From: Bilabrum cf. latius
Taxonomy: Eukaryota
Assembly: GCA_965178125.1 (NCBI GenBank)
Contig: OZ237756.1
Span: forward strand, 682,001 to 746,000
Direction: 5' to 3'
DNA length: 64,000 nucleotides
Below are positions 1 to 64,000 of the stretch, piece by piece (positions within the stretch are counted from its first letter, which is position 1; every line of letters starts with the position of its first letter). The translations under genes were made by a program, and so were the position numbers. A model generated the notes under the pieces. It searched no databases. It was not told the origin of the DNA and saw only the letters and a list, made by a program, of their open reading frames with translations.

Positions 1-189
1 GCTATACCCAGCGATAAACTGTATAGCAAAATCCATAAAGATTTAGATAATGAAGATAAGGATGTAGCAAGACATTCACGAGCTGAATTTTTGAAAAGTT
101 TTAACCCTAATGAGTATAGCGTGTATAATACGTTTGAAGGGCTTTCATAGATGGTTATGTCAGTCTATAATATGACCTACAGAGTGTAA
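1..189 (+). CDS. 3' end of a homolog of the element B P-loop protein (20384-21001)
   Basis: IPSDKLYSKI..SRAEFL..EYSVYNTFEGLSQMV aligns by eye with VPSHSLFEEI..SRTNLI..QYCVYSSFQQLEEFV; one in-frame TAG; TAA stop. Confidence 0.55.
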
Positions 190-225
190 TTATTTGAATA
201 TTATTAAAATATAAATTAATAATAT

Positions 226-1383
226 TTATTTAGTCTTATTATTAAAATTATCCTTTAGAGTTTTTGATATATTTTTAGCCGGCTCCGTTGTTATCTTCCA
301 TTGAATTAAATATTCATCTTGTCCCTCTTGATTCTTTCTTCTCTTTATTATTTTACCTATATCATTCTAATATTTTCTTTTAGTAGCCTCATCAACATAT
401 GAATCTTTCCATTTAACCCTGTATGTATTATTTTTATTCTTTCTTATCAATTTTTCAATTATAAATATATCTTGTGCTTTATTCTCGTATGGTTTAGATG
501 CTAATAACAACTAATCTCTATTAAAGTATGTATAGGGTATGCCCTCAATTTTATATAATGGGGGGTTATCTGGTTTTATTATTACTCTTTCAATTTTATA
601 AGGCTTTACGCTATATTTAATATCTCCCGCCCTAAATGCTCCGGTCTCCTTTATCCCTTCTATACTTCTAGGATAATCTAATCCTATTCTTACCATTTCA
701 CCCTCATTTAATACATCACATACTTCACCCTAACATCTAGGCGGTATATATGGTAGATTCTCCCTTTTCTTATTCAACATTTCCTATCTTGTTTTATAAC
801 GCTCGTTTAATATCTCCCTCAACTTTGGTATTAAATGTCTCCAGTTCGTAATAGTTGTCCCCGTTCTTATCTCCTATGAATTCAAATAATAAAATATAGC
901 TCTCCCTATTTCCTCATTCAATCTCTCCACCAAAGCCATCTACGATTTACGCTTCACTCTTGAAAATATATGCTCTATCTTATTCTTCTTTAGATATTCT
1001 TTAAATAATTCATTATCAAATTCTCCCCCTTTATCTGTTCGTATCATTTTAGGTTTCATTAAATAATTTCTTTTATAGATTTTTTGAAAAGCTTTTATCA
1101 CATCCTCCGCCCCTCTATCCTTTAACTCTTCAAAATCTAACGCTAACCCGCTCGTATCTATCACAACTAATAAATATTTTGAATCGTTCTTGGTAGCGTA
1201 AGGGAGATACAATAAATCAGCCTATTGGATAAGCCCCTCTTTAGTAGGTTTATAATATTTAACATAATTCAATCCTTTCGGTTTCTTTATCGGCTTCATT
1301 AAATCGTTCGTGATAGACTTCGTATTAAATCCAAAACTTGACTCATTAATATCATTATCTTTTTTCTTTCCTCTCTTACTCAT
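226..1383 (-). CDS. Retroviral-type (rve) integrase with chromodomain-like tail (element C)
   Basis: Single 385-aa frame with TAG=Q; Q[Q]ADLLYLP, YLLVVID, IRTDKGGEF and [Q]MALVERLN give the D-D-E triad; C-terminal EYLIQWK..TEP. Confidence 0.9.
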
Positions 1384-1423
1384 TATATATATTAATTGAT
1401 TTTAATATTTATAAATTAATTAT

Positions 1424-1795
1424 TCACGGATTAAATAATTTATTAATAGCTTCATTCGTTTTAATGTGCTCCTTGGTGTCTCTTATCTCCTAATGGATAT
1501 CAACCAACTTTAATTTTTCTTTCTTAGTGAGTCCGTTCATCCTTCCCTTCAATTCTTTTAAAGTTTTCATATAAGGGGCTATAGCTTCTGCTTTCTTTTT
1601 GCTCACCTCTTTATATTCCACATTAAGAGCGGTTAATTTACTATTCACTTTATTTTTTAATTCTGTCTCTTTTATTTTTAGTTGCTTTAACTTTTGTTCT
1701 AATTCACGATTGGTCTTCTTAAAGTCTTCTACAATATCAAGAAATTCATTCTTTAACTTTGAGCGGGTATTAATCACTTTTTGTAATTTATCCAT
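1424..1795 (-). CDS. Hypothetical Lys-rich coiled-coil protein
   Basis: ATG to TGA through one TAG; preceded by the shared TCTA upstream motif. Confidence 0.65.
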
Positions 1796-1800
1796 TTATA

Positions 1801-1837
1801 TATAATTACTAGATATTTTTTTTATTTTTTTTAAACT
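1801..1837 (-). promoter_or_regulatory. AT-rich TATCTAGTAATTATA upstream motif, copy 1
   Basis: 37 bp identical to 2141-2177; both copies lie just upstream of an ATG. Confidence 0.6.
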
Positions 1838-2135
1838 TCATTTTAACTCTTTGTAATTCTCGTGCTATTTCTAATTCCATCAATCCCCTTATTATTCTGC
1901 CATCGTGATAATCCTAAGATGAACAATGAATCAAATCATTCTAAACTGCCGGTAAAGGTATTCTATACATCAATTCATATTTAATAATCTCAAGCGTTAT
2001 TCTGCCTGTTCTCTTCTTCAAAGCTACCCCTAATAAGAGCGGTATTTGTTTATCAGAAACTCTTTTGAATGTCCCTCTAACTATTTTTAATATTCTGCTT
2101 ATACTCTTATCTGTATAAATTACTCTAAAATCCAT
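1806..2135 (-). CDS. Hypothetical protein
   Basis: 109 aa with TAG readthrough, ending in TAA; shared upstream motif. Confidence 0.6.
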
Positions 2136-2140
2136 TGGTA

Positions 2141-2177
2141 TATAATTACTAGATATTTTTTTTATTTTTTTTAAACT
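2141..2177 (-). promoter_or_regulatory. AT-rich TATCTAGTAATTATA upstream motif, copy 2
   Basis: Identical to 1801-1837. Confidence 0.6.
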
Positions 2178-2230
2178 ATAGAATTTTATAAAACGGGTTT
2201 AATAAAATAAAATAATAATTATAATAAAAC

Positions 2231-3028
2231 TTAATTAAAATTATCCTCTATCTCGTCTCGCTCCTCGTTATCCAATACCCAATCTAATCTTGAAGGGTGC
2301 CACGCTCTAGAAATTAATTCTTCTTTGATTTTTTTAGTTTGTTCAATTGTTTCATCTTTCCGCTCTTCTAATGATGGGATTAATGTCGTGGAATAATCAA
2401 TTCGTTCATCCTTAATTCCATTCTCCAAATGATTAAAACTAAAACAATTAGAAAACATACATTCCATATCTACAACATTTGAAACATCCCAGTTATTTAA
2501 AGGTTGATTTAGTGAATGGCAATCATAAAACATTCCGCACATATCTTTAACATTTGAAACGTTCCAATTATTCAATGGTTGGTTAAATGAATGGCAATCA
2601 TTAAACATTTCACTCATATCTTCAACATTTGAAACATTCCAATTATTCAATGGTTGGTTAAACGAATGACACTCATTAAACATACCGCCCATATCTTCAA
2701 CATTTGAAACATCCCAGTTATTTAAAGGTTGATTAAACGAATGACACCCATAAAACATATCGGTCATATCTTTAACATTTGAAACATCCCATGAATTTAT
2801 TGGTGATTCAATTATCATATTATCAAATAGGTTTAACATATTCGTAATAAATGTTGTTACTAATAATTCAGGTTTCAAAAACTACAATGCGTGAAGAAGA
2901 AAATCTGTATCTTTAGCTACGTAATATGTTTTACCTTCAAATTTCACAATATAATTATCTTTTCTAAAATAATATTCTTTTGGTTTTGTAGCTTTCAAGG
3001 TTCCATTTTCCCATTTTAAAACTTCCAT
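2231..3028 (-). CDS. DUF285/BspA-like repeat protein
   Basis: About five 25-aa repeats WDVSNVxDMxxMFxxCxSFNQPLNN; ATG at 3028 reached through one TAG. Confidence 0.85.
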
Positions 3029-3525
3029 TCTGTATATACCTATAATAAATATATTTTTTAAGTCAATTTAAACGCTCTATAACAATTTAAAAATAAAAGC
3101 GCGTTTGTTCCATTTGTGAAGGTATAAGCGAGGATAAGGGGGTATAATGAAGGTAGTTTAGAAGGTTGAATAATGGAGTCCCATAAAGTGATGGAACTTT
3201 TGGCTAGAAAATGGCTAGAGTCCCATAACACCTTCACAAGAGGGCTACATCCACGTTTTGATTAGAACTTACATATACTAATACGCAATTTATGGATATG
3301 GTCATCGTATAGAGTTTTATATATAATTGATTTTATATAATTAGAAGGATAAAGCAGTTATATGAAGTAGCAGTATGAAGAGGACCACCTTGACTTTTGG
3401 AGCGACTAGCTCCAAAAGGAGTGGAACGGACTGAAGAGCTTTAGCTCTGATGGACTGGAACTATTGATGATGTTAATCATCCTTAACCGAAGGGAATAAA
3501 TTTATTTATTACCGTAGCGGGGGGG

Positions 3526-3719
3526 TATTTTCTCTACGCTGGAGTTCCATACCTTCCACTTTCTTTTAATCGTTCAATTTTTGCCCTTTTCCTTATAAAA
3601 TCACTATATTCTGTTTCTAAATCTACGTCGTCCCTTGCCTGTAAATCTAACATTTTAGCATTGTCCAGTTCCCTCTCTAGGGCTTGCTGAATAAGAGCAT
3701 TCACTTTAGCAGTTTTCAT
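3526..3719 (-). pseudogene. 5' part of the 15552-16733 homolog, interrupted by element C
   Basis: Same MKTAKVNAL.. N-terminus; homology stops after AGAGAAAATA. Confidence 0.8.
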
Positions 3720-3782
3720 TTACTATAAGCTTTTATAAAAAGCTTGACCAAAAAATAAAAAAAAGTGTTTGTGTATAGTATA

Positions 3783-4022
3783 ATGGATATTGATAAGTGG
3801 ATTATATAGAGAACCAAACAACTCGCGCTATAGAAAGAACAAGACGCTTTAAATAGAGTTAAAAACCATCATATTAAAGTTGGGAAAGGCCGTAGTAAGC
3901 CTAAGCGGAAAGTGAGCGCCAAAATGAAACGCCGCAATAAACTTGTAAAAATGGTGATGTAGTAGACTGGTATGAGTTTACCTCAAGCAAGTCGGTATAT
4001 AAGAGAATAGAATATTATTTAA
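3783..4022 (+). CDS. Small basic putative core protein
   Basis: 79 aa with TAG=Q; GKG site followed by RNKLVKMVMQQTGMSLPQASRYIRE; conserved in B. Confidence 0.7.
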
Positions 4023-4051
4023 AGAAACTTTTATAACAAGTTTGACCAAAA

Positions 4052-4954
4052 TTATAGAAGGTAAGCCTACCTTTCTCCAATTAAATACCTCGGGTAATTC
4101 CTATGAACACAAACCCACCGAGAAGGCATTTTTAGGACTTTAGAGATTTCTTGTTTCTCAAGTCCAATATAATTTTTTAGTAAATACCTTAGAGAATGTG
4201 CGGAAGAACACTAAGGGAATATAACGAACTTATGACTTTCCGCAAGAATAATACGGGTACTTTTATAGTTGGTGGATAAATGACTTGTGATTAATACTGA
4301 AGTATTTGAGTGGCGACCAACCTATAATATTTCATCCTGTAAATGATTGAGGGCTTCCCTTAACTTCTTATCTTTGATTGTATCAATATCATCCAAGATT
4401 ACTAAGGCGTCCCTTAATTCCTAATGAATATCAATCGGGTTCTCCACCAGTTCCTCATTTAAAATAATCCTTTTCAGTCCTTTCACTTCATCTAAGACTT
4501 TATCCTACTATACTCGTGAAAATAAAATAATTCTCCTGTTTGGAAACATTCTATGATAATTCTTAGCATACTTGGAAACCCAAGTAGACTTCCCAGCACC
4601 TGATGGTGCGGTGATATATATTACCTCTCTTCCGTTTAAATTTGGTAATGATTGGAATTCACCCTATTTTAATGTAATCTCTTTATGTTTCTTTTCCTAT
4701 GCTTTTTCATACAAGTATTTGATGTCTTCGTCTAGGGGTTCGACCTGTTTGATTAAGTGTCGTGCTAATAAATCCATTTTCCTCTGCGGAAATCGTTTCC
4801 CTGTAAGTGATGATACTTGAAAATCCTAGAATGTAACACTATCATCTCCAAATTGGTTGTCTGTGTTTTCCGCTGTGTATAAAATACGTTTTCCGTGAGT
4901 GTCATATGCGATAGGTGATGATTTTGTAGTTTCCTTCCAAGAAAAATATGCCAT
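4052..4954 (-). CDS. Virophage packaging ATPase (A32/FtsK-HerA-like)
   Basis: 300 aa; Walker A APSGAGKS, Walker B LVILDDID, GRH motif. Confidence 0.93.
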
Positions 4955-5029
4955 TTTAGTGTATTTACTATATGTTTTTATATTTTCTAAAGTGTTTTGT
5001 CTTTTTGTTGAAAACTTATTTTGAATGAC

Positions 5030-5368
5030 TTAAACAGTTTCTAGATTTTGTGGGGACTTTTCCATTTCCTCTAGAACCTATGTTTGTAACTCTTTCCTTC
5101 GTTTTGGATTAATAGAATTCCGCAATACTCTTACATCACTTGACAACAATTTCCACTAAGTATATATTTTACCTCCATTCACCGGACAAATCTGTTGTCC
5201 TATCTCAAGCAATAATTCTATGTGCTCCTCAGTTTCTTCCTTTTTGGTTTTGAGTAGATTATACTACTTCTTAAGGTCAAAATATGCTTTCCTTGCAATT
5301 AAATAATCTTTATATACTTCCATATACCTTTTCCAATTACCATATTTCCTTGGTCGTCCTGCTGACAT
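5030..5368 (-). CDS. Hypothetical protein with N-terminal GRPRKY (AT-hook-like), absent from element B
   Basis: 112 aa with TAG=Q, ATG to TAA. Confidence 0.6.
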
Positions 5369-5542
5369 TTTTTTAATTGTGTCTGTGTATCGTTGGGGAA
5401 AATGTATCAATTTTTCTTGGGGACTTTTTAATACCGATTTGTTTTCCACAAATTCCTAAATGGATTTTGTAGAAATACTTCTACACTTAAATAGTGGTTA
5501 AGAGAATTCATCTCCCCCAATATATATGTATATAATAAATCT

Positions 5543-6097
5543 ATGGATTATGCTCTTAGCGATAGTGATATTCGTGTTCTCCTCCAAAATCCACCAAATA
5601 TTAAAGGATTTCTTCCTACGTCGGTAAATATTGTACCTTATACCGAATTAGGATAGTACAATAGTATTGATGGATTGTTTTCCCGTTGTAATTGTTGCAT
5701 TATTTTGTATCAAGAAGAAATAAACTCTGGACACTGGGTGTGCTTATTTAAGCGTAACAAAACAATATACTTCTTTGACAGTTATGGAATTCGTCCTGAT
5801 AGGCAATAGCAGACAATGAGTGAAAGCGTGCGGAAACGTTTTTATGAAGACCCTGAGTTAATTTATTTAATGTATCATTCTCCGTATAAGATTGACTATA
5901 ACCCATATTAGTTTTAGGCGGATGGAATGGATATAGCAACCTGCGGGAGACATTGTATAGTTCGTCTTTGGAATAGAGCGAAAAACGCTAATTAGTATAA
6001 AAAGTGGGTGGATAAGGTTTGTAAGAAACATACATTAAATCCTGATGAATTAGTGTATTTATTGACGTATCATCTTAATGATATACAGGAAATATAA
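5543..6097 (+). CDS. Adenain/Ulp1-like maturation cysteine protease
   Basis: 184 aa; GHWVCL, FFDSYG, F[TAG=Q], TCGRHC (H-D-Q-C). Confidence 0.93.
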
Positions 6098-6139
6098 ACG
6101 GGCATACATTAAATATTATTATATCACTTTATAGAAATA

Positions 6140-6451
6140 ATGCGTTGGACTTCAAAAGACCAAGATAAATGTATGAGATTAAGAAATAAAATAGAAGACA
6201 AAATATGTAATTTAAACGTCAAACAAGGTGTTCTATCAGAAACAGCAATTAAGGAAATTTAGAGTTTATTTTATAATATAACATTATTTGAAAAGGAACC
6301 TGAGAAGTATCATGAACAAATTCAATCACTGACAAATATGGTGGAAAACATTATATTTGAAGAGCAAGTAGAGTATCTTGTAAAATAGGCGAAAACACGA
6401 ATTCTTAACAAAGACGAAATCAAAGAGATAATCGGTAATGTATCTAAATAA
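6140..6451 (+). CDS. Hypothetical protein, absent from element B
   Basis: 103 aa with two TAG, ATG to TAA. Confidence 0.6.
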
Positions 6452-6511
6452 TAAAGATGATATTAAGTCCCCATAAAATTCTGATGCTTCTTGCTGTTAA
6501 AATGGTGTCAT

Positions 6512-7004
6512 TTATGAACTCCAAAGGTAAAAATGTGAGAAGAACTTTGGGGTTCTTGGTTTTACTTCGATACCGTGTCGTTTGAAGTATCTAAATTGGC
6601 GGTCCGTATCTAAATGATTTAAATGGCTGTAATACCCTATTCTATCGTAAAATTGCTAATACCGCCTATCACCAAACGATGTAATATATTCTGATCCTAA
6701 CGCCGGATGGGGTTCGGTGTTGATGCCAGAGTGGGAGCGCGTGAACGTCTCGTTGGGTTCCGATGGCGGTTGCGACCGGGAAGGTGCGACCAAGCCAACG
6801 GATTGCTTGCGATGACGCGCATACCCTCTCTGTGTTCAGGAGAGGGGCGGAGATTGGGTAATTTTTGCGAGACTAGGTTGCGCGTACACTCTGGCATCAA
6901 TCATTTTCGTCAAAAACATCATACTTCTTATTCTTGCGTCTTGAGGGTGCTTTAAATTGAAAATTTTCAACAACCTTTTCAAAATCGTAGGTATGTGGCT
7001 TCAT
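6512..7004 (-). pseudogene. DUF5754-like gene disrupted by a 208-bp insertion
   Basis: Matches intact 13312-13596 except for the insert at 6692-6899. Confidence 0.8.
6692..6899 (-). mobile_element. 208-bp GC-richer non-autonomous insertion with asymmetric inverted repeat (Helitron2-like?)
   Basis: Absent from B; 13-bp IR TGATGCCAGAGTG (6721-6733) / CACTCTGGCATCA (6887-6899); no TSD. Confidence 0.7.
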
Positions 7005-7206
7005 AAGTACTTTATAGTATAGTCTTCTACTTATATCAAAGCCCGAGCTTCTTGTATTCCTTTAGTTTTTCGTGTAATTTTTTCCAAATACGTGGATTAA
7101 TTTGCTTGACAATATGCTCTATCATCAACTCCTTTAAAAATGGGTTCATTTACTATAGTGATATAGAATGGCTTAAATTATCATCTCTTGGGAAATCCTT
7201 GGAAAA

Positions 7207-8250
7207 TTAATTTTAATATTTCTTTGTATCCTATATTGTCAAAATTTTTCAATCAATTTTTGTGTTTTTAATTGGAAAACAATTATAATTTGTTTTTTAT
7301 TTTCCTTTTGATTTTTATGGTGGCATCATAGGAGTTACAACATTTAATTTTAATCTTTGAAAAAGATATCAAAAGAGCGGAGGGCAAAGCCCGAGCATCT
7401 TGGGAACTTAATTTATTCTTTCTAAGTCTCTTATAATTGACCTGTAAAATTGACAAGTTTTTTGGGGACTTTTCGAAAGGGACTTAAAATACGTTTTCGT
7501 TTTCCTTTTAATTTTAATGGTGGCATCATTGGAATTATAACATTTAATTTTAATTGGAAAATATATTTATTCTTTCTAAGTCTCTTATAATTGACCTGTC
7601 AAATCTCTCAATTTTTGGGGGACTTTTCCAAAGGGACTTAAAATACAATTATAATTTGTTTTCGTTTTCCTTATAATGTATCATCTCTTGGGTAATCGGT
7701 TTGGTTGCTTCGGAGAACAATTTAGTCGCTTGGGAAATCCTTGGGAAATCCTTGGGAAATCCTTGGGAAATCCTTGGGAAATCCTTGGTCGGTTCATCGG
7801 TCGGTTCATCGGTTTGTCGCTTGGTGTAACTACCTTGTTCTCTTGATAAAATACCTTGTTCTCTTGGGAAAATCCTCGGTTGGTCTCTTGGTCTCTTGGG
7901 AATTCATCCTTTCGTTCCTACAGCAAACACAGAGAGGTTTTTGACACTTGGTTAATTTCTTCATTTTTTCCTACTTTACTAAAACATCTCTGTCTTTGCT
8001 GTTAGAGTTTATAAGGGGGATAAAGATTAGAATTCTTCAATTTACCCCTACTTCGTAGGAGTAAATTTTATATCTGAAAATGGGTACATAGAGGGGTTCT
8101 ATAGGGGTTCTTGGGGAACCCCTTGGGAAATCATCTAGGTTTATAGGGAAAACACTTGAGTTGCTAAATATGCCTTTAAAGGAGGGGCGAGCGTAGCGTA
8201 GCCCTCGTCCTCAACGCTTGGTGTACCTACCACCACCCGTTGTCCCCCCC
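7207..8250. repeat. TIR of element A
   Basis: Near-identical to 27975-28886; contains 11-bp CCTTGGGAAAT tandem repeats. Confidence 0.9.
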
Positions 8251-8460
8251 CTGCGTCGCATCTTAGCGTCACAGGCCGTGCCAGAGAAGAACGCTACTGG
8301 CTTGGGCTGCTTCTGTATTTCTTTGCTAATCCTGTCTAGCGCAGAGGCTGATCTCTCTCTTTCCCCAGTGTAGACTCGAACCGGAATGACACCTCGCCGG
8401 TCGATCACAGGATCACGCCAGTATCAGCTGAACGTTCGCGAACGAACAGCTGACCCTGCC
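8251..8460. repeat. Internally deleted copy of host repeat 29817-30778
   Basis: 8251-8415 matches 29817-29980 and 8413-8460 matches ~30728-30775. Confidence 0.85.
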
Positions 8461-11400
8461 CGGTTCGAGCTGCCCGGGCTAAACTTGCCGGCTGCTCCTC
8501 TCTGGACCGTTTAGGAGCACTCGCATGAAATCGTGTTCGGTGAGGTAGATGCAGGACGTAGATATGATATGATATATATGGGGGGATGTTCTAGAGACAT
8601 TAGAATATGTCGTGGGGATCAGGTGGGGATAGTGATGTGAGGGATCCTGCAGAGAAGCGCCTGTAAGCCTGATGGTTGGATGTAGTTTCGATTGCGATGG
8701 ACCACCTCTGTTCCTGGCAGCCTAACCTGGATCCAATTACCCGCAGTCCTTTGTTGGCATTGCATTAATCCTGCCGATTTCCCCGCTACAGCCTCACCAC
8801 AAGCGCACGTGACGGCTTCATCCGCCCCTTCACACGGCCTCGGCCACCGGATGCTCTTCATTCGCATCGATCGCCTTGTCGTCTTTCTTGGCAATCCCTG
8901 GCTTCGTGTTCCTGCATTTAAAGAAGTAGGTGGCTGCTCCCACCGTGACGGCAATGACGACGACCACCACCACCACGATGATGATGACCATGCTGGCCCC
9001 TCCCTCGTCGCCATCCTCGTCCGTGGAAGGAGCCACAGCCTCCTCCACTTGCTGGTCCTATTCTTGTACGGTGACCTCCACGGCAATACTCGTCGTATCA
9101 ACCGCGAGTAGCTGGGCTATCTCGGCGGGCGCAGCCATCCTGAGCAGCTCCACCAGCGTATTGTCTTCGGACGTGGTCCTGTTGCCCCGCATGAAGTCCA
9201 GGATGTCCTGCCTTGTGTTCTCCGCGTCGGTGCGCTCCAGCAGAATTGTCACGGTGAAGTCCAGCTCGGTGGCGGAAACACCATTTTCCTCTGAGCCCGA
9301 GGCCTGAAGGGAGCGGCTCCTGCTGGTCGAGGACGGGGTCAGCCGGTCGATGGCCACATCATCGCTTCTGGCCACTTCCCCGACGGCAGTGATGAAGGGA
9401 GTCAGCAGGTTCGACTGGAAGATGGGCGTGGTCACGCTCTACACCCTAGTCCCGGATACCCTGATGCGCCTGCCTTTGCTCCTCACGGGAGCCGTGCACG
9501 TGTTACTGCTGGCCGAGCACACGAGTCCACTGGCGCAGTTGGCTGCGGCGATGCAGGTCCTGCCCTGGGCGCACAACGGACAGTCCTCAGCAGACGCGTC
9601 CCCGCAGTCAATGTCGGTTTCCTGGCCGTTGGTCTCGCCATCACTGCATGTCGATCCTGCGGCACTACCGGTGCTGGATGTGCTCGGCATGGGCGAGGTG
9701 CTGGGACTGCTGGTGATGCTCGGCGTGGGCGAGATGCTGGGGCTGCTGGATACACTCGGCGTGGGCGAGGTGCTGGGACTGCTGGTGATGCTCGGCGAGG
9801 GCGAGGTGCTGGGGCTGCTGGATACACTCGGCGTGGGCGAGGTGCTGGGACTGCTGGTGATGCTCGGCGAGGGCGAGGTGCTGGGGCTGGGACTGCTACT
9901 CGGGGTGGTCGACGGCGACGGCGACAGCGACGGCGATGGTGATGGCAGTTCCCATTCATTAAAGAGGATCCAAGTTGCCCCTCGGCCTCCCGTTATAAAA
10001 TTACTACCATCGTTGGCTGCCCCGACTGCGAAGTCGGTGGTGCCATCTCCGTCCAGATCGCCTAGGGATGCCACGGAAGATCCGAAGTAGCCCTTATCGT
10101 CCAGCTCGCCGGTGAAGCCGCCTTCCGTATCGGAGATCTTCTGGTGGTACTTGACGGTGCCGTTGGCGTTCAAGAAGAGGATCCAAGTTGCCCCACGGCC
10201 CTGCCCTCCATCATCATCTCCGCGCGCCCCCACTGCGAGGTCGGTGGTGTTATCTCCGTCCAGATCGCCTAGGGATGCCACGGAAGATCCGAAGTTGTCA
10301 AAGTTGTCCAGCTCGCCGGTGAAGCCGCCTTCCGTAGAGGAGATCTTCTTGTGGGACTTGACGGTGCCGTCGGCGTTCAAGAAGAGGATCCAAGTTGCCC
10401 CACGGCTCTCTCCTCCATCACTATCGCTGCCTGCCGCCACTGCGAGGTCGGTGGTGCCATCTCCGTCCAGATCGCCTAGGGATGCCGCGGAAGATCCGAA
10501 GTAGCCGTAATCGTCCAGCTCGCCGGTGAAGCCGCCTTCCGTAGAGGAGATCTTCTGGTGGTACTTGACGGTGCCGTCGGTGTTCAAGAAGAGGATCCAA
10601 GTTGCCCCACGGCGATTTCCTCCATCACCATCGTTGGGCGCCCCCACTGCGAGGTCGGTGGTGTTATCTCCGTCCAGATCGCCTAGGGATGCCGCGGAAG
10701 ATCCGAAGTAGTCCCCATCGTCCAGCTCGCCGGTGAAGCCGCCTTCCGTAGAGGAGATCTTCTGGTGGTACTTGACGGTGCCGCCGGTGTTCAAGAAGAG
10801 GATCCAAGTTGCCCCACGGCTCTCTCCTCCATCATTATCGTACATTGCCCCCACTGCGAGGTCGGTGGTGTTATCTCCGTCCAGATCGCCTAGGGATGCC
10901 ACGGAAGATCCGAAGTTGTCAAGTCTGCTCAGCTCGCCGGTGAAGCCGCCTTCCGTATCGGAGATCTTCTGGTGGGACTTGACGGTGCCGTTAGTGTTCA
11001 AGAAGAGGATCCAAGTTGCCCCACGGCCGTCTCCTCCATCATCATCTCGGCTTGCCCCCACTGCGAGGTCGGCGGTGCCATCTCCGTCCAGATCGCCCAG
11101 GGATGCCACGGAAAATCCGAAGTTGTCCGCACTGTCCAGCTCGCCGGTGAAGCCGCCTTCCGTATCGGAGATCTTCTGGTAAGATTTGACAGTCAAGGTA
11201 GCGTCTGTCGTACTCAGCTCTCGCCTCAAAGGGCGCTTTGCTGTCACATCCACTACGAGGTTGTACCCCATCGCAGCGAATGCAGTTGGGGCAGCCGCCA
11301 CGGCCGCCGCAATGATACTGCAACAAGCAAATAGAGCGGATTCTAAAACATTAGGTTTTGATGTATGGTTTTATCTACCGCAATGCTGCCAGGTGCACGA

Positions 11401-11907
11401 GATAAGAAGAGGGTGTAAGCCGCTGCAAGCGATTTCACAGTCCAACCGTTCTGCTCACAGGCATGCATTCGTGCCAAACGTCAGAGACATTTTTGTTAAT
11501 ATCCGGATGTGGTTCTTCCAGCTGCGATGCTTCGAAGGGCATGAATCAAATGAATGGAGCAGAATCGAGTCGGAGCAGTGAAGGGACAACAAGCCTGGCG
11601 GTACTCGCAGGACACCATGCTTGGAGCTGGCAGTGTGCAACTGCTATGGAGTAGTTGGTGGATCGTGTTTGCTTTGTGACACTATGATATACCGACAAGT
11701 TTTACGTGAAGTGTAGATGGGCCCTGGCTCTTCACACTGTAGTCCAGCAGGCGGCATCCATATGGATCAACGATACGAATACCAAACGGCATCAGAACGT
11801 GTGGTCTTTAGAGTACTAGTAAGATGCTTTATCTCACGTACGAGGCTGGATGTTGCAAGGGGCTTGGGGTGAGACCTCTCGAAAGCTGTATCAGCTGAAT
11901 CAAGACT
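8461..11907. repeat. Segmental duplication, paralog of 42774-46225
   Basis: Direct near-identical copy including the FG-GAP gene and flanks. Confidence 0.92.
8830..11301 (-). CDS. Type I membrane protein: FG-GAP (integrin-alpha-like) repeats, S/T/P linker, Cys-rich module, TM helix; start uncertain
   Basis: Three track ORFs are one frame joined by TAG; repeats FGSSVASLGDLDGDGTTDLAVGA; hydrophobic VIIIVVVVVVVIAV; TGA stop. Confidence 0.85.
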
Positions 11908-11959
11908 AGACTAGATAATCACACACAACAAAACCTAGGTTTTACCCTACAAATTATTC

Positions 11960-12095
11960 TGGTATATTCTGGTTTGGGTCTGAACCCATCATGGGTAGAA
12001 CAGACATGGACCGTTCCCCGCGCGAAGTCGTATGTGTATCTAGGGTTGCTGATATCGACGACGAGGATCCATGCCACAGCAGCAGAGCTTGGGCC
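11960..12095 (+). pseudogene. Left half of a non-LTR (LINE) RT remnant split by element B
   Basis: VPRAKSYVYLGLLIS resembles the RT domain-7 YLG motif; frame continues at 28892 when one GGGCC is removed. Confidence 0.5.
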
Positions 12096-14127: not shown

Positions 14128-14316
14128 ATATATTTATTATAGAAACATATATTGGGGGAGATGAATTCTCTTAACCACTATTTAAGCGTAGAAGTATTTC
14201 TACAAAATCCGTTTTGGAATTTGTGGATAGCATAAAAGACAATCATTCAAAATAAGTTTTCAACAAAAAGACAAAACACTTTAGAAAAAATAAAAACATA
14301 TAGTAAATACACTAAA

Positions 14317-23259: not shown

Positions 23260-23260
23260 T

Positions 23261-52030: not shown

Positions 52031-52051
52031 TACATATAACAGTTTGAGTGC

Positions 52052-55000: not shown

Positions 55001-55237
55001 GCCGTGGTGGATGCAGGTGCGTTGCCCGGACTGGTGGTGTTGCTGTGTTTAAGCAAAGGCGAGGAGGCTACAACTGCGGTGGAAGCACTGCGTTGTATCT
55101 CTTGCGGATCGGAGGGCCTGAAGCAGGCTATAGTGGATGCAGGTGCGTTGGGCCCACTGAGGCAGCTGAGGGACTCTATCACAGGACCAACTCGCACGAG
55201 GGTACGAGCGGCTCTGCTGGTTTTGGGCGAGGCGTGA
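52052..55237 (+). CDS. PINK1-like (pseudo)kinase C-lobe fused to a long ARM-repeat array; start uncertain
   Basis: Four ORFs in one frame joined by TAG; VVHRVLKLDNV, GGNQAHLAPE; ~14 ARM repeats. Confidence 0.78.
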
Positions 55238-55385: not shown

Positions 55386-57016
55386 CAGGGCTGCGCGTTA
55401 TTAAGGGCTCCTTAATAACGTGGATTTTCGCCAGCGGAGGCCTTAATAACGGAAGTCACTTTGTCGCCTCAATAGCCCATGATAATGGTTGAGAATAGTA
55501 AATATAGTTTAAATAGTTTTTAGTTTATTCGTATGGGCGGTTGTAATATCAATATTGCTATTATTTAGCCAGTATGAGCGTGCTACAATTCAAACCTTTA
55601 ACGTCGAACCCACGCAGGTCGGCACCAGGCCAAGAAAAGGCAGATATCGCCGCCAAAGTCTAGCTTAATAGCAAGATCAAGAGATGCTTACTCAAAATAG
55701 CCGGCTGGTATTCGTAAATACCACGAGGTTAGGAGTGCAGCTGAGCTACTACTGAAGCTAGGTGCAGGGCTCCTTTTGGGTGCAAGACTGTGTGGCCCGA
55801 CCGGACATTACTTTAATGTACTCCACAATGTTACCGATATTGATACAACATCCAGTGCGAAGGAGCTTGAGGCGCGATTAATGCGTCTGCTGATGCAGCA
55901 CGACGATCTGCCCATGCTTGCACTTGGGCGCACCAACACCTTCTCAGACAGCCCAGAAGCAAAGGCCATGGCGTCTTGTTTGCGGACTCAGCGTGCTAGA
56001 ACTATACTGATGTGGATAATGAAGGTAAATCACGCTATATCTGCGGTATTGAAGAGGATGAATTCGGATGCATCATCGTCGGCTGCTCGGGTCTTGGGCA
56101 AGGCATGGCTCGAGAAGAACAAGTGGTGGATGCTGCCAAACACCGCCGTTGGCTATGTGTTTTTATTACTGAAGATGGGCTGGTGCTGATGGATTCGTAC
56201 GAAGCTCAGGCATACCACAGGCGTGAGCTTCTCCGACCGAAGCAGACGCAAGAGCATCTGCTGGGTAGATCTAGGCAGGCCGCAATGACGCCCTTAAGGT
56301 TAACAAGGATCTCGCACCAGGAATAACCATCGGACAGGCTGCAGGTGACGGTACATGTTTGTTCAATTCGCTTGCGCAGCTGCTTCCTGAGGGCCCGACC
56401 ACCTCATAGCCTTGTAGGTTGCGCAAGGCCATCGTTGACGAGGTCAAAAAGGGCATGGGCGACGGCGTCAGAGGAGGCTCGACAGTTCTCGGGGAGATGT
56501 TGCAGACACCTGACGGCACGGAAAAGATGCTGATCTTGTAGTAGTACGTGAACAGCGTGCGCAAGGACGGTGTGTGGGGTGGTCAAATCGAAGTAATGGC
56601 TGCAGCGAGGGCCTGATGGGTACTTCTACTCGGTACATGCCCCCTCCTCATCCCGTCAAGTGGTCGCCATACACTTAATGGGCTCCTATTACAGCCCGTG
56701 CCATGCAAGCTATGTGGTTCTGCGAGCCTTGGTCGTCGAGCACGAGTGAAGGGTGTCATGGCTTCTTGTGGCTATCCGGCAAGCGTCACAGCCTGGATAA
56801 CTACCAGAATGTATTGCTTTGTAGTATACTAAGATGTTGTTTATAGTATGTGGCCTATATATCATGCATAGCTCCCAATATATGGACGAAATGAAGAAGA
56901 TCCAAGGACCCGATCTTAATAACGTGGATTATTTTGAAAATCTTCTTAATCACCGGCTTAATCACGGATATTGGGTCCCGGTATTAAGGTTTTGGCCTTA
57001 ATAACGCACAGCCCTG
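55386..57016. mobile_element. Non-autonomous hAT-type DNA transposon
   Basis: 21-bp TIR CAGGGCTG(C/T)GCGTTATTAAGG; 8-bp TSD GCGTGGAC; empty paralogous site at 41864-41871. Confidence 0.9.
56227..56616 (+). pseudogene. OTU-like cysteine protease fragment inside the hAT element
   Basis: GDGTCLFNSL..LR..Y...VWGGQIEVMAA, followed by TGA. Confidence 0.7.
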
Positions 57017-59899
57017 GCGTGGACGGACAAGAAGAGGAGGGTGACGATGGATATCATTGGAGGTCTTCAGGTGCGTGACATGGCTTGCGTCGGGGCAGGA
57101 GAAAGTGAATTGCAGGGTGCGGCGGGAGGGGCCGTAGGTCCAGCTCCGAGCGCATGCGGTGGCTGTGGGTGCTTGGTCTGGTGGAGTGCTGAGCGGTCAG
57201 TTCGCGTGGTTCCGTAGGTGGCGAAGGTGGAGCGGGCCCGTTGGGAGGCCGCCCGCCGGTCCTCGTCCTCGTCTAGGGGACACACGGGGGGCAGCTTCAG
57301 CGGTGGGAGGTCCTCGGGGGGCGGAGGGGGCGGGTGGTAAACTAGAGCTGTCGAGTCCACCCTTCTCGATCGGATCCGAGTGCCTGACAGGGTGAATTCC
57401 CTAGCTCGGATTCATCACTCGTGGAACCTGCGGCCATCGGATGCTCTAATCGATTCTGAGCTTAGGTAAGTGTCATGGGGTCGGCCAATCCCTGGTCCGA
57501 CGGATGTCTCGGGCTGGGTGCGGAACGAAAAACTTAAGGCAACATCCGGATCTGATCCTGACAGTCTTGAGTCATGACGACCATTTCGATTGATTCTGAG
57601 TAGCCTGACGTATCCTGCGGCAACTTGTCTGGTTCTCAAACACCACCAAATGAGGGTTATAATTCATTAAATCCGGATCAACGGCGGCTCATATCCCCTG
57701 CATTGAGCACGTCCCAGTCGGCCGGCTCTGGATTCGACTGATGCACCCAGGTTGGGATCCCACCCTTCAGACTTCTAGCGATCCCTTCGTGCACCATGGC
57801 CGATCCACACCCTGTCTTCCCACTGGATTCGTACTTTGGGATGGGTCTCACAATCGAAGTCGGCACGCTGCTGCTAGGCCTGCTCTGGGTTTCAGCTAAG
57901 TAACTGGCGGATACAGCTCTATCGGCAGGTGCATACGCCTGGTGGTCGCTAGGTGCTTCATGGTTCAAGATCCCAGCCCTCTGAGCTCCACCATCGAAGC
58001 TACGACTGCTTCTGGTGCTTCTCCTTGTTGTCCACATCTGATGAGTGCCGCTGGCAGAGTGCTCTGTTGGTGGGAGTGGCTGCCGACTTGCAGGTGACGA
58101 GCCATCGCGAGCCTGCGCCACAGTCCATGATACGGTGCTGCCGGTGGATGCCGATGCTGTCATCCCTGGCGCGGGAAGTGACCCCCACTCGTCACACTAA
58201 TTGCCTGCTCCCTTTTCTCCTGTCTCGGGCACACTCGGCCAACTGCTTGCGTCACCAGGTGCCCCCCGATGCGTGCTGTGTTCACGTATGTCTGCAGAAG
58301 CTTGCAGACGATGTGAGGCATGGCCAGGAGTATGACCAGGGGCATGGCGAGGGGCAGGTGTGACGAGCCCGTGCGGCAGATGGTACCCTGCAGGTGCGCC
58401 AAGCAGACCGGTTGCGATGTACTACGGCGGCAACCACTGGGTTTGATTCTTCTCCGCTCGCCTACGCTGCCCCCGACCTCTGTCTGCTCCGACTTGATGT
58501 CCTATGCCTGCGTCTACTACTTCACCGGCGGCACTGGAAATAAAAGCACCGCTGCCAGCATTGCTGGCAGTTGCATTTGTGGCGCTGCTGCCCGGGGCTT
58601 TTGGTGGACCACATCCCTGCTAATCTGCACCTACATACATTCGAAGTATCCGCAGCGCATAAAAACCTAACTCTATTCTGGCTTCATGAGAGTATCCGGG
58701 GAGTGGGCTCCTGAATAAGGACTGGAGCGCCCAAGTGCGAGTGCGTACGTCACGGTTCATTGCCAAGCCTGCCACGACACTAGAATCTACACCACACTAC
58801 TCCAGCTTGCTGATGACATAAGATAATAAAATACGAGCTGGTTTAGACTCCAATCTTCGTACTTGACGCAGGAATAGTCTGTACAACACCCGGTCTATTC
58901 GTCCCATGACTTGTCAGGCGCTTGATACTTCCGTTCCACTGTGGCGCACAAACACGCTAATATGATCTACGTTGGCCAAGTCCGTCACGGATGGTTGGTA
59001 CAGAGTGCGGCTGGCCACACTACCGACTGGCCGTGTCAGGCAATCGTTGCAAACCAAAGTGCTCCGTCGAAATACAACTACAGTGCTGCTAATGCGCAGC
59101 AACGCGATTGTATTCTTAGTTGTTTTTTTTGGCTACACAGTGCGGATTTTTGCCGTGAACGAACGAAGAAATCTTTATTTTCGAGCCCAACATTCGATAC
59201 CTGGGAGCAGTTCCGGTTTGAGCGCAGCGACTCCCGATCGGAGCCTGATGAGGTGAGCGCGGTCAGCCTGAGCGCTACCTTCGACTCGCCTGACGTTGTA
59301 ACAGCAACACGTGGGCGCTTAAGCTATCCAAAACCCAGAGCCATTAATACATTAAGTCTATTTTTAGAGGAATAAGGTCATCTCGGACACCTCAAAGGCA
59401 CCATTTGTCGCCTGACGGTACGGCCCGTGCTCTGCAGTCTCGCGGTGACGATCCGACTTTGCTCGGCAACTGCGGGCAGGACGGCCACATTACCATGCAA
59501 TCATCGCCTTTTAACCTTACACCACATGGATCTGACCCCCGAGTATCTCGGAAAGGGATTATGCGGGGAAGAGTTGGAACAGGCGCTTCAGCTTCGTAAG
59601 AGTTGATTGTGTTGTAATATTGCGGCCAAACTTCGTCACCAGTCCCCGGCAAGAGACACATAGCTAGACGTGTCATATTTACAGATTGTTTGCACCGCAG
59701 GTAGCAGCAAGTGCAAGCTCTTCGCCCGAAACGGTCGAGCCGCTGGCACTCGGCGGCTCAATCTGCCATTGCCGGTCTCAAATCGAGCGTCAGCGGCCCG
59801 AAGCGATTTGATGCAGCAGCACAAAGCAAAGTTCAATCACCACCAGATGCGTTGGACAAGCTTCTTGGACTGGATCAGCGTCTTTCTCCAATTTAGCGC

Positions 59900-62800
59900 A
59901 TGCCGCCGCCTTCTTCCAACGGGGACGAGAACCGGATTAGGCGGATTCCCAGCCTGGTGATCCATGAACAGTACAGGCAGCAACGGATGGACATAAACCG
60001 TACCGTTCAAAACGCGCGCGCCCGAGCGTCGCCAGTAGAACGTGTCGTGCCTACCACCACGGAAGAGACGACCGTGCATGATGGAAGCGGACCAGCCAGC
60101 AGCGAGCTGGCACCCATGGCATCGCACTCATCACACTCTTCTCCATCAAATCGCCTCACAATTTCAACCGACGCGGCCGGGTCATTCCCAGAACTACCAT
60201 CCTCCGCTGCATCACCGATGGCCGGAGCAGGTGGCGGCAGGGGCAGCGGCAGTCGTGGGAACAGGGTCTCCCCACTGGTGGGCGCAGGGGCAGTAGCTCT
60301 CGCATTCGCCTCGTCCTCCTCACCCCCGTCCTTGTCGTCGTCGAGGCACTCGTCACACTCATCGCCGACGTCTCCCTCTGTTGGTTCGGTGGCAGTCGGC
60401 CGGTCAGCTCGACTGCACCGGGGGCGCTCATTTGGGCACAGCAGCAGCAGCAGCAGAGGGGGAGGGGGAGGGGGCGCCAAGTAGACGCCCGGAGCAGCCG
60501 CAAACAGGCCGCCGCCACACGCCCACAGAAAGGCATCATCGCCTCTAGCGCGGCCGATCGCTCGCCCTGAACCTGGCTCGGCGCAAGAATGGATGGTCGC
60601 AGAGGGCGAAGTGCCGCCCCTTGTCACTCGTCACACCGATGCGGGCCGACTGACGGGACGAGCATCCAGCGGGTCCGTGGCCGTAGTCGGTGGAAGGAAG
60701 AAAAAGCCGACCGGTGCACTCTCAGTGCGTGAGAAACTCAGGCGCGCGGTGGGTGGAATCATCAAGACCAAGCGGAGAGCCAGGGGGGGAGACAGCTACA
60801 TGCAGTGGTGCGAGGATTCATCGCTGGCGGCGTTTGTGGCGGCGCAGGCCGCCAGCCAGCTTCGGCCGGAGCCAACTCTACTCAGGGCACAGCAAATGGC
60901 CAGCTCAACGACCTCCGACGGCCGCACGAGCACGAGCGGAGCCAATCGCACTTCCACCAGTACCAGTACCAGTGACAGCGACAACAGGAAACCAAAGAGG
61001 CGATCCAAAGGCAAGTCCGCGGTGGTAGAGGTTAAAGAGCGCTGTGGATCGATCGGCTCGGTGGGGGGCGGTACGTCTACCAAGGTACACGCTACAAAGC
61101 ACAAGAAACCCTCGGCGGCTCTCGAACTCCGGCACTTCGAGATGGGCTCCAAGCGATCGTCCGCGCTAGCGTAGGCCCTCAAGTCTGCCTCCAGCAGCCT
61201 CCGCGCTGCAGTCCTCAGCGGCAACAGGCTAAACGCCGCTGACGTCATCGATCTCAGTCAGGGGCTGCTGGAGCACAAGAGGCTGAAAGAGCTGGATCTG
61301 TCCCGAAATGACTTGAGCGAAAGCTCGCGAAGCCTTGTGGGCGTGGTTGAGATGGCAAAGAGGGCGAGCAGCGGTGCCAGCGGAATCCCATCCTCTGTAG
61401 GGGAGGCAATCGGCAGGGTGATCAAGGCTTGCCCAAAGCTGGTTCTAGTCAGGTTGCAACGGTGCGGCCTGTCTGCACGGGCGGTAGGGCATGTTTGCTC
61501 CGCTGCGGCTTCATCCAAATCGCTCAAGCTGCTCGACTTCAGAGGCAACTCGATCGGTCGGCATTTCATGAGCGCGTCGGGCGAAGCAGAGCTACGGGCT
61601 GCGTTTGCCCACCTGGGTACGTGCAAGCGCCTCAAGTACCTGGATCTATCGAGCAATGAGATTCAGGGCGCGCAGTGGACTGGCATGATTCGAGCGTGGT
61701 ACGATGCCCCATCGCTTCGAGAGCTCGACATTTCTGGCAACATGCTGGACGTGCAGTCATGCTGCGCCCTGGCAAGAGGGCTCAACAGTGGCGCAATGCG
61801 GCTCAGGTCAATTGCGATGGTTAGCTGTGCTCTAGATGAAGGCCTATCTGTAATAGTAGCATCGGGCGTGGCCGGCTCCAGGTCGCTCAAGAGAGTCACG
61901 CTTGACGGGAACAGGGTGGGTTCCCTTGCCGCGGCTGGCCTTCTGCTGTGGTCACTCGAGGACCCAGGGAACAAGCCCAGGCTAGTGAGTCTGCTGGACT
62001 GCGGTGTGACGAACGCGGTCAAGGAGTCGAGCCAGCTCTGGTGGATCCCGCCACCGCCCAGCTCCACCATGCCGCTCCCAGGACTGGGCGAGTACAAGAC
62101 CGCATCTGGAGTGGATGTCGACGATCCTGTGGGCCCTTACGAGCTGTGCCTGGCCCATCCCGTGCAGCGAGCCATGGCAAGGCTGCTGGCCATGATTTGT
62201 TCCATTTGGGAGCCCTACACGGTGGAGCAAGTAGAGTTCTTGGATCGATCGAAGGACGGGGCAGGGACACCTGCAGGGATCAAAGAGGCACTCGAGTCCG
62301 TAGCTGCCGGTGAGGGTGCTGGTGAGGGTGCTGGTGCACCCGTCCGACAGGCATCCATCACTTCCGACCGTGCCCGGATCGATTCGATCCTGAGTCGCAC
62401 CGAGCTATCGGAGCCCATCGCGAGTCTCGACACACAGTAGTAGCTGCTGAATGGCCTGCAGCGGGCTCGTGCCAGCGTTTCATCGAGCGGTGGAGCTGCG
62501 CCCAAGCTCAAGATCGGTCCGGTGGTGCGGGTCACTGTCGGCTGCACGCCCAAATACTCGGGTCACGGGGCGGAAGAGTCCCCGCAGTGCAGTGCACCCC
62601 ACGTGGACTACGTGCTGAGCGCCCTCGAGACGATCGTGGAGGCGAGCTGCTTCACGGAGGAGGAACGAGCGTGGGCGGCGGGGATGGTGTGCAGGGCGGC
62701 ACTCTTCACCACGGAGCAGGCGAAGCGTCTGCTCGAAATCGTCACGATGTCAGAGACCGACAAGGTGCCCTGGAAACAGGGGTCCGGGCCCAAGCGGACC

Positions 62801-64000
62801 ATGGCATCCGCGCCCTCTCGCAGCACTCACGGAGCGTATCGGCTGCAGATGCTCCGCCAGCTCTGCTCGAGGGTGAGCGGCGCCGCCGGCGGGTTTGCAC
62901 TCCTGCACGAAGTTTGTTCCCTGGACGAGAGGCGGGCACTGTACAGCAGCCTGGGCTAGCTGATCGCCTTCTAGCCGGGCAATGGCACGGGAAGGTACAG
63001 GCTTCGGCTGGCCAACAGGAACGACACCGCTCTGCTGGACCTGCTGATCGGCTGCGACACGCTCTGCAGGCGATGGAGGCAGGAGCAACCGCCCGGCCAC
63101 GTCTGCTTTGACACTAGTCGTTACGGCGACGGATCCTGTTTTAGGAATGTTCTGCTCGACGGCAGGCCCTACCGCATGCCGGCTTGCTGCACCACAGAGC
63201 AGATCGAGGCGGCTGGAAGCGAGCTGCAGTTCGACTTCGTGAACATCTCCAGGCCGAGGAGGGATGCGCCCGTGTTCGACGACGTGCAGTCGCTCGAGCT
63301 GTTTGCTGGTCTGCATGCTCTGCTGCAGTGCGATGCATCTAAGGAGCAGCTGAACCTCGCCCTGGTTAGGGCGCACAACGTCATCCGGTCCGGGGCCCCC
63401 GTTGGCACGACGACGTTGGCAGCCGGCCATGGAGCCGGAGGAGCAGCTGCTGCTGGCTCTCACTGGGACGGTGGCATCGGCCTAACGGTATCATCCACGG
63501 CGACGACTGTTGGCTAGTCATCCCGCGCTGCCGAAGATACGACCGCTCTGCTTGAGGACCCCGTGTCCATCCGTCGATTTGACTTGCTCGCGTCTCTGCC
63601 AGCACCCCAGCTCATATCCGAGTAGCAGGCTGGGCTGATCAAGGGATGGTACGACGTATACCACGAATCAGAGGACAGGGGAACGCAGTTTAGCAAGCTA
63701 AAGGAGATGCTTCCTTGCACGGTGCAGCACAGGCAAGATGCTGTGCGGTACCTGAAGCGGCTTTCGGCTTCACGGGAGCGGTTTCAGTCGCACTCAAGCA
63801 GTACATCAACGGAGAGCCAGGGGCCTAGAGCCTACAAGCAGTACGCATTTAAGCAATTTCACGCCCCCGTATCCAGGTTCGAGCTATCGTCGGGTATGGG
63901 GCCAGTAGACCCTGCATCCAGGGTACGCAGGGGCAGCACCAGTGGCAGCGGTAGCTCGCGAGGCAGGAGTGCATCCTCGCCTTCTTTATTGACGCAGCCG
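59900..64000 (+). CDS. Large protein with Ser-rich N-terminus and RNI-like LRRs (runs off the window)
   Basis: Five ORFs in the same frame joined by TAG; LKELDLSRN, LKYLDLSSN, LRELDISGN. Confidence 0.78.

Follow-up and report, generated by a model that had tools for sequence, protein, structure and literature searches.

The genomic region considered here is a stretch of 64,000 nucleotides from Bilabrum cf. latius (NCBI GenBank assembly GCA_965178125.1, contig OZ237756.1, positions 682,001 to 746,000 of the forward strand), hereafter referred to as the window, in which two integrated virophages lie next to host genes and in which the codon TAG stands inside the genes of both. Base composition forms a mosaic over these 64 kb, with positions 1–8000 and 12000–28000 at 30–40% GC and the remaining parts, 8000–12000 and 28000–64000, at 54–68% GC. 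An integrated virophage is present twice, in the AT-rich parts 1–8254 and 12091–28892, which are referred to as elements A and B (Table 1). Element B is bounded by terminal inverted repeats (TIRs) of about 1 kb at approximately 12091–13061 and 27975–28892, which are 99–100% complementary (repeats I3 and I6), and its GC content of 0.36–0.40 contrasts with 0.54–0.68 in the flanking DNA; no target-site duplication was clearly recognisable when its end sequences were inspected. The right end of element A is a repeat of the element B terminal repeat, as given by repeats D12–D14, I1, I2 and I4 and by the junction sequence, and the two elements have a protease–ATPase end in common, at 93–97% identity and in inverted orientation. 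When TAG is read through, the Pfam matches of the virophage genes comprise a major capsid protein (MCP), a penton protein, a packaging ATPase, a primase-helicase, two rve integrases and a weak polymerase B; the chromodomain match is clear in one integrase and weak in the other, and the cysteine protease, which is not part of this Pfam-listed set, was recognised via its homologues. The features that characterise mavirus-like endogenous elements are all present, namely a morphogenesis module (MCP, penton, ATPase and cysteine protease, with Pfam matches to Sputnik MCP and V18/19 domains), TIRs, an integrase and a low GC content.

Table 1. Virophage elements, virophage genes and host open reading frames in the window (positions are those of the window; ORF, open reading frame)
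Feature	Position	Strand	Match or remark	In-frame TAG	End
Virophage element A	1–8254		AT-rich, GC 0.30–0.34; left side lost at window start		
Virophage element B, whole, 16.8 kb	12091–28892		TIRs and GC step at ends		
Integrase C, rve core and weak chromodomain match	226–1401	-	PF00665 E=3.1e-10	7	TAA
DUF285 repeat protein	2231–3067	-	PF03382 E=1.6e-55	1	TAA
Packaging ATPase copy 1	4052–5029	-	43 homologues	9	TAA
Cysteine protease copy 1	5543–6097	+	26 homologues	5, from first Met	TAA
Cysteine protease copy 2	13591–14133	-	TAG in invariant Gln column, 13753–13755	5	TGA
Packaging ATPase copy 2	14236–15219	+		9	TAA
Virophage ORF without family match	15552–16733	+		13	TGA
Penton (minor capsid) protein	17344–18456	+	PF21507 E=1.1e-8	13, from first Met	TGA
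Major capsid protein, Sputnik-type	18562–20328	+	PF22031, PF21915	14	TGA
Virophage ORF without family	20276–21001	+		9	
Virophage ORF without family	21027–22283	+		11	
Virophage ORF without family	22304–22945	+		9	
Putative protein-primed DNA polymerase B	23261–25120	-	PF03175 E=7.1e-5, under curated cut-off	4	TGA
Primase-helicase (DUF5906)	25160–26824	-	PF19263 E=6.6e-15; 11 homologues	10	TGA
Integrase B, rve and chromodomain	26879–27949	-	PF00665 E=5.8e-9, PF00385 E=6.2e-6	6	TGA
Host FG-GAP repeat membrane protein copy 1	8830–11370	-	PF01839 E=1.3e-40	9439–9441, 9058–9060	TGA
Host FG-GAP protein copy 2	43143–45698	-		43758–43760, 43752–43754, 43371–43373	TGA
Host ARM-repeat ORF	40446–41738	+	PF00514 E=3.1e-57	0	TGA
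Host kinase-like and ARM-repeat protein	52040–55237	+	Arm E=7.3e-80, Pkinase E=1.2e-7	53135–53137, 53936–53938, 54566–54568	TGA
OTU-like cysteine protease fragment	56227–56616	+	PF02338 E=2.5e-7	5	
Host LRR-containing ORF	59618–64000	+	LRR_8 E=3e-7	10, of which 8 in coding-scoring part	open at window end
GC-rich ORF with RT-like FSDD-TAG motif	46533–49433	-	motif-level resemblance only	6	

Long reading frames appear in the AT-rich parts when TAG is taken as a sense codon. Under the standard code there are 3 ORFs of at least 200 amino acids, as compared with 14 when TAG is sense (the longest of 619 amino acids), 12 when TAA is sense (the longest of 266 amino acids) and 3 when TGA is sense. The 15 virophage ORFs, with 5539 codons, contain 123 in-frame TAG, against 190 TAG, 374 TAA and 315 TGA in the two off-frames, and they end in TAA (7) or TGA (8); the total lack of in-frame TAA and TGA is partly a matter of construction, since these two codons delimited the ORFs. 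An earlier reading made from the sequence alone (hereafter the sequence-only reading) had described just this pattern, with TAG as the break in recognisable genes and TAA or TGA at their ends. Support that is free of this circularity is provided by the four ORFs that span whole homologues: with TAG read through, coverage is 92% by the best match for the ATPase, 97–99% for the helicase and 95–97% for the protease, and residues 1–588 of the MCP are covered, its homologues being about 540–660 amino acids long. Capsid protein, ATPase, protease and helicase are restored at full length only if TAG is sense.

The distribution of the breaks and the comparison of the duplicated genes provide further evidence. 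Under a nonsense-mutation model applied to the virophage codons, 26–28% of the single-base routes to a stop codon yield TAG, and the probability that all 123 breaks would be TAG is about 1e-68 to 1e-72. Copies 1 and 2 of the protease differ synonymously at 18 and non-synonymously at 6 of 179 codons, those of the ATPase at 22 and 10 of 325 codons, and the TAGs common to both copies are retained in 14 cases out of 14 (5 in the protease and 9 in the ATPase). This excess of synonymous differences points to purifying selection on proteins whose genes contain five and nine TAGs, and thus to genes that have not decayed. Moreover, since the capsid gene contains 14 TAGs, occasional read-through would yield too little useful protein, which argues that decoding must be efficient. 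Taken together, these results show that the virophage genes are functional and that TAG is read as sense in them.

The amino acid specified by TAG was evaluated by two tests on homologues of the virophage genes. In the first, which is similar to that of Codetta, weighted residue frequencies were taken from the homologue columns and the log-odds were summed over all columns carrying a given codon, using 43 homologues of the ATPase, 11 of the helicase, 150 of the capsid protein and 25 of the protease (one further protease match, P0205, was left out). Over the 33 TAG columns of these four genes, Gln scores +18.2, against −3.6 for Asp, −4.3 for Glu, −7.8 for Lys, −19.3 for Ser, −21.7 for Tyr, −26.3 for Leu and −45.6 for Trp; the control, with all homologues kept, decoded 60 of the 61 sense codons correctly. 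When the genes are taken separately, Gln obtains +7.1 in the protease, +6.6 in the helicase and +3.6 in the capsid protein. In the second test, for which P0044 as well as P0205 was excluded, the residue of the nearest homologue having one at each column was recorded: Gln stands at 13 of 36 TAG columns, with Lys and Glu at 5 each, whereas the controls give Gln at 22 of 53 CAA and CAG columns and, at 92 GAA and GAG columns, Glu in 43 and Gln in 11. As judged from these alignments, the profile of TAG is close to that of CAA and CAG and unlike that of GAA and GAG.

Individual columns can be considered in addition to the pooled scores. The protease TAG at 5915–5917 (13753–13755 in copy 2) follows a Phe, lies nine residues upstream of the Cys in ATCGRHC and falls in a column that is Gln in all 25 homologues, which are 29–49% identical to the query; the sequence-only reading, in which an F-TAG ahead of TCGRHC was placed at a position normally held by Gln, is borne out at this site. 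This column presumably represents the oxyanion-hole Gln of adenain/Ulp1-like cysteine proteases. Helicase TAGs 177, 228 and 267 (26294–26296, 26141–26143 and 26024–26026) correspond to Gln in the three closest homologues, P0044–P0046. For the integrases, the same reading had put forward two pairs of motifs, one of which holds cleanly: in KS-TAG-MALVE versus RQQALVE, the TAG (aligned as X) is opposite Q, whereas in Q-TAG-ADLL versus QMDLL the result depends on the placement of a gap, and MAFFT sets the X opposite M. Integrases B and C are 32% identical, and in their alignment the remaining 11 TAG columns are not Gln. Two of the integrase C TAGs, at 1222–1224 and 940–942, adjoin the regions of the catalytic D and E; searched against the PDB, this integrase matches retroviral integrases, but only downstream of its first TAG, and the protease gave spurious WD40 matches only. 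Overall, TAG behaves like a Gln codon in the virophage genes, where, with one copy taken per gene (4943 codons), 111 TAG stand beside 116 CAA and 45 CAG, with 0 internal TAA.

In the virophage genes, the other two stop codons have retained their function. Beyond the last TAG, similarity extends further in 41 of 43 homologues of the ATPase, 7 of 11 of the helicase, 146 of 150 of the MCP and 25 of 25 of the protease. The C-termini of these homologues lie at most 5 residues from the terminal TAA or TGA of the query in 22 of 43, 10 of 11, 127 of 150 and 19 of 25, respectively, an agreement that is somewhat favoured by global alignment. UAA is kept as a terminator in virophage genes, as 7 of the 15 ORFs end with it and the ends of the ATPase and the protease fit the C-termini of their homologues. 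Similarly, UGA is kept as a terminator, closing 8 of the 15 virophage ORFs and all 8 GC-rich ORFs that end inside the window, and the ends of the MCP and the helicase fit their homologues. If TAA were sense, DNA this rich in AT should contain it often, and none is present inside the 4943 virophage codons. No gene with a TAG at a homologue-supported end was found in the window.

In the GC-rich parts, 23 in-frame TAGs are located in five Pfam-supported host ORFs (2 and 3 in the FG-GAP copies, 3 in the kinase–ARM ORF, 10 in the LRR ORF and 5 in the OTU fragment), and there are 8 more in two retro-like ORFs and 8 in an ORF at 32276–36442. Because TAG is the commonest nonsense outcome in GC-rich coding DNA (53–55% of paths), an all-TAG pattern is weaker evidence for the host than for the virophages, the probability of all 23 host breaks being TAG under the nonsense model amounting to 5e-7 to 1e-6. 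The segments between TAGs were additionally scored by codon usage trained on the other host ORFs, and frame 0 is the best frame in every segment of at least 30 codons in the kinase–ARM ORF (4 of 4) and in both FG-GAP copies; in the LRR ORF it is the best from codon 94 on (7 of 7), and the first two segments (92 codons, two TAGs) are not coding-like. The FG-GAP paralogues have two TAGs in common, with 170 of 844 aligned codons differing. Host ORFs thus carry TAG inside continuing coding frames. In the PDB, the OTU fragment has weak viral OTU matches only, which are uninformative on its TAG columns, and no housekeeping gene was found among the Pfam hits of the GC-rich ORFs, of which 73 further ones gave one OTU domain. 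ORF-length statistics, which were also considered for the GC-rich part, do not discriminate, as a sense TGA gives even more long ORFs there, all of them off-frame or antisense.

In this organism, UAG is probably a sense codon, glutamine being its most likely meaning, and termination is left to UAA and UGA, which is the rule of NCBI translation table 15. The virophage is dependent on the ribosomes and the release factor of its host; hence, the host would be expected to have the same code, including the residue at TAG and the TAA stop. Under this reading, the integrated virophages would be translated on host ribosomes and would have drifted deep into the code of the host, TAG making up 111 of their 272 putative Gln codons (41%) as compared with a sparser 18 of 142 (13%) in the GC-rich host genes. 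The host would supply a tRNA-Gln with the anticodon CUA, one base from CUG, and its eRF1 would have lost efficient recognition of UAG while keeping that of UAA and UGA. According to published work, a tRNA with a CUA anticodon reads UAG and not UAA, so that UAG can change alone, and a change in eRF1 is needed as well (PMC11687900, PMC5304391). In the sequence-only reading, a reassignment of TAG alone, probably to Gln, was proposed for host, retroelements and viruses together; this is supported for the virophage genes and, with regard to in-frame TAG, for the host, where Gln would be the expected residue, and it finds no confirmation for retroelements.

Several observations weigh against this interpretation. 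No tRNA gene was detected in the 64 kb by ARAGORN or by an Rfam scan at gathering thresholds, the latter giving no match to any family, and the eRF1 gene is likewise absent from the window. The GC-rich ORFs that close inside the window end with TGA in 8 of 8 cases and never with TAA. Between the FG-GAP paralogues, 50 codons differ synonymously and 120 non-synonymously, with little sign of constraint, and their dN/dS was set aside as proof of constraint since it is not clearly below 1. In the host, TAG aligns with GAG in the ARM repeats and with AGG in one FG-GAP copy (TAG 43758–43760 of copy 2 corresponds to AGG in copy 1). With respect to the virophage residue, there is a possibility of circularity: P0205, a 94% match to protease copy 1, is the window's own copy 2 with Q at all five TAGs, which means that a pipeline feeding the protein collection had earlier translated this DNA with TAG as Gln. 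Other close homologues may have arisen through the same kind of translation, for example P0044, with 90% identity to the helicase and Q at 9 of the 10 TAG sites. In view of this risk, the column test was also carried out with close homologues removed, which gives Gln +8.8, Asp −2.1 and Glu −6.5 without homologues above 50% identity, and Gln +6.4, Asp −3.1 and Glu −7.5 without those above 40%.

An unlikely alternative confines the recoding to the viruses, so that the host would use the standard code, a suppressor tRNA of the giant virus or the virophage would act during infection, and the host ORFs with TAG would be pseudogenes. The frequency of TAG is in keeping with this, amounting to 22.5 per 1000 codons in virophage genes and 3.9 per 1000 in host ORFs (a roughly six-fold difference); furthermore, phages with TAG as Gln in standard-code hosts are documented (PMC9523058), and there are reports of virophages that carry tRNAs, among them an ochre suppressor (PMC6905037). 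However, higher TAG use is also what the AT bias of the virophages predicts, and neither virophage copy carries a tRNA. Moreover, four of the five large host ORFs have TAG in a continuing frame that is free of frameshifts, TAA and TGA, and the two TAGs common to the FG-GAP paralogues are found in genes that have diverged.

The possibility that TAG is sense but stands for glutamate or another residue is very unlikely, and it draws on the remaining unfavourable points, which concern single residues. The ARM-repeat column with TAG consists of 16 GAG, 2 TAG, 1 AAG, 1 GTG and 1 ACA, an alignment with GAG that the sequence-only reading had correctly entered as a caveat; helicase TAG 500 (25325–25327) is Glu in the three closest homologues; ATPase TAG 236, located within ILxVGRH (4322–4324 in copy 1), is Glu in 36 of 43 homologues, mostly distant ones, and Gln in 6 of the 8 closest; and the ATPase taken alone weakly favours Lys (+4.5) and Glu (+3.1) over Gln (+1.0). 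In addition, UAG as Glu exists in one ciliate (PMC11687900). Opposed to this are the pooled scores for Gln and Glu, the lead of Gln when close homologues are removed, the invariant Gln column of the protease and the nearest-homologue profile. The counterexamples from helicase TAG 500, the ARM repeats and the FG-GAP copies come from very similar sequences, in which any codon one base from TAG is possible, as in a GAG-to-TAG change; recent differences between paralogues consequently say little about the meaning of TAG, yet they are not Gln.

That the TAGs are not translated at all, being decay in dead copies, assembly errors or stops removed by RNA editing, is most improbable, even though spurious stops from assembly errors are described as frequent in the genes of endogenous virophages and Polinton-like viruses of protists (PMC10120064, PMC8547959). 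Every one of the 123 breaks is a TAG, whereas single-base nonsense changes in such AT-rich genes would most often give TAA; the ORFs extend over the full length of their homologues with no frameshift, and the virophage copies show a synonymous excess with every shared TAG kept. Public sequences related to the capsid protein also break at the same positions: among five partial relatives that are 50–70% identical, four break exactly at TAG positions of the query, with P0057 and P0110 stopping before capsid TAG 384, P0055 beginning after TAG 121 and P0160 after TAG 446. This suggests that recoded relatives of these virophages occur in other samples, where their genes have been split by standard-code gene callers. 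In total, the MCP has 2245 relatives at E<=0.001, and the 'phages' collection contains no relative.

Equally improbable is a code in which TAA and TAG are both Gln and TGA is the sole terminator, which is the commonest nuclear variant (PMC11687900) and agrees with the TGA ends of all 8 GC-rich ORFs, since 7 of 15 virophage ORFs end with TAA at positions that the ATPase and protease homologues support (22 of 43 and 19 of 25), no TAA accompanies the CAA and TAG codons of this AT-rich DNA, ORFs with TAA as sense reach the modest length given above, and the density of TAA rises just past the terminal TAA (DUF285, for example, is followed by 7 within 70 codons, and each ATPase copy by 2 within 22).

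With regard to retroelements, the involvement claimed in the sequence-only reading is not confirmed. Integrases B and C, of the rve/chromodomain type, belong to the virophages and not to a retroelement, and the only RT-like ORF, at 46533–49433, has no Pfam match at E<=1 and no meaningful PDB match at E<=10; its AlphaFold2 single-sequence model, with a mean pLDDT of 34.5, is unusable. No retroelement of the LTR or DIRS/Ngaro type could thus be verified, an RT domain being recognised neither by a family model nor by a fold.

Other features of the window are of interest for its organization. Elements A and B have different integrases and different neighbouring genes, which suggests recombination between virophage lineages; the DUF285 gene is present in element A and not in element B and has an accessory-like look. 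A host segment that includes the FG-GAP gene occurs twice (8251–11400 and 42600–45700), with 8461–8760 being 100% identical to 42774–43073, and 8251–8415 is identical to 29817–29981, the latter being adjacent to element B. These duplicated segments around the insertions could reflect rearrangement, segmental duplication or an assembly artefact. Both FG-GAP ORFs have a signal-peptide-like hydrophobic stretch ahead of the first Met, and by this indication the true start is probably in an upstream exon, and host genes would contain introns. Two long tandem arrays are situated at 34194–36273 (period 112 nt) and 36280–38931 (period 107 nt); in the former, all three minus-strand frames are open, which inflates the ORF at 32276–36442 to 1388 amino acids, and the C-terminal, non-repetitive half of this minus-strand ORF (32276–34300, about 690 amino acids, 5 TAG) is without a family match at E<=0.01.

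The significance of such a code lies in the rarity of a separation of UAG from UAA, which bears on the discrimination of codons by eRF1 and on a possible origin of code changes in which the CUA suppressor comes first. With the present case, the known examples would be extended by a GC-rich genome whose usual stop is TGA and not TAA. Host, integrated virophage and the implied giant virus would furthermore constitute a testbed for the isolation of viruses by code and for the pace of change in codon usage. At a practical level, standard-code gene callers will shatter virophage genes of this kind and may report them as degraded. A more far-reaching proposal, which can be put forward tentatively, is that a GC-rich, non-ciliate host lineage with an undescribed UAG-to-Gln code represents a further independent decoupling of UAG and UAA, and that its virophages have co-evolved with the code to such an extent, with TAG at 41% of their Gln codons, as to make it a barrier to compatibility; if so, the virophage would be tied to its helper giant virus and its host, and exchange with standard-code hosts would be blocked in both directions. 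The literature search, which covered main texts and few subscription journals, yielded no description of a TAG-only code in a virophage or endogenous virus, nor of a GC-rich flagellate with UAG as Gln; for Halocafeteria (host GC 47%), the accessible text contains no mention of a code change under the terms searched.

Decoupling of UAG and UAA in nuclear codes is known from about ten lineages (PMC11687900, PMC5304391), and a few other lineages have UAG-only changes to Leu, Ser or Glu (PMC11687900). UAG as Gln with UAA as a stop has already been described, and the organism studied here is a probable further case. In the fornicate Iotanema spirale, UAG encodes Gln and UAA is the main terminator (Panek et al. 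2017, PMC5304391); as here, UAA and UGA are both stops, whereas the evidence came from the transcriptome of an anaerobic flagellate and is in the present case genomic, from a GC-rich sequence (55–68%) with TGA-preferring GC-rich ORFs and with virophages that share the code. Similarly, UAG alone is reassigned to Gln in the ciliates Hartmannula sinica, Trochilia petrani and Protocruzia tuzeti (McGowan et al. 2024, PMC11687900), and the CUA-suppressor argument of those authors fits the present data. However, UAA is the preferred stop of these three ciliates (86.9–98.3% of genes), in a class with a GC content of 27–54%, as opposed to TGA in all 8 GC-rich ORFs here, so that the two compositions are opposite, and the accessible text reports no virophage link for them.

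Comparable viral elements are known from other systems. The code 15 phages, in which TAG is Gln (PMC9523058), resemble the present virophages in having a virus genome rich in in-frame TAG, but they differ from the code of their host, whereas here the host ORFs carry TAG too and the viral element is without a suppressor tRNA. The endogenous mavirus-like elements (EMALEs) of Cafeteria burkhardae are low-GC virophages with TIRs in a high-GC host (Hackl et al. 2021, PMC8547959) and are likewise accompanied by GC-rich mobile elements and equipped with MCP, penton, ATPase, protease, integrase, polymerase and primase-helicase; in the accessible part of that report no non-standard code is mentioned, and the Ngaro ORF2 matches the Pfam RT family, whereas the RT-like ORF of the window matches nothing. 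The endogenous viral elements of Streblomastix strix use the code of their host, in which TAA and TAG are Gln (Bellas et al. 2023, PMC10120064); like elements A and B, they are integrated elements of the Polinton-like or virophage type that follow the host code, which was taken as a sign of long association, but in Streblomastix TAA and TAG are reassigned together (table 6), whereas in the present virophages TAG alone has changed.

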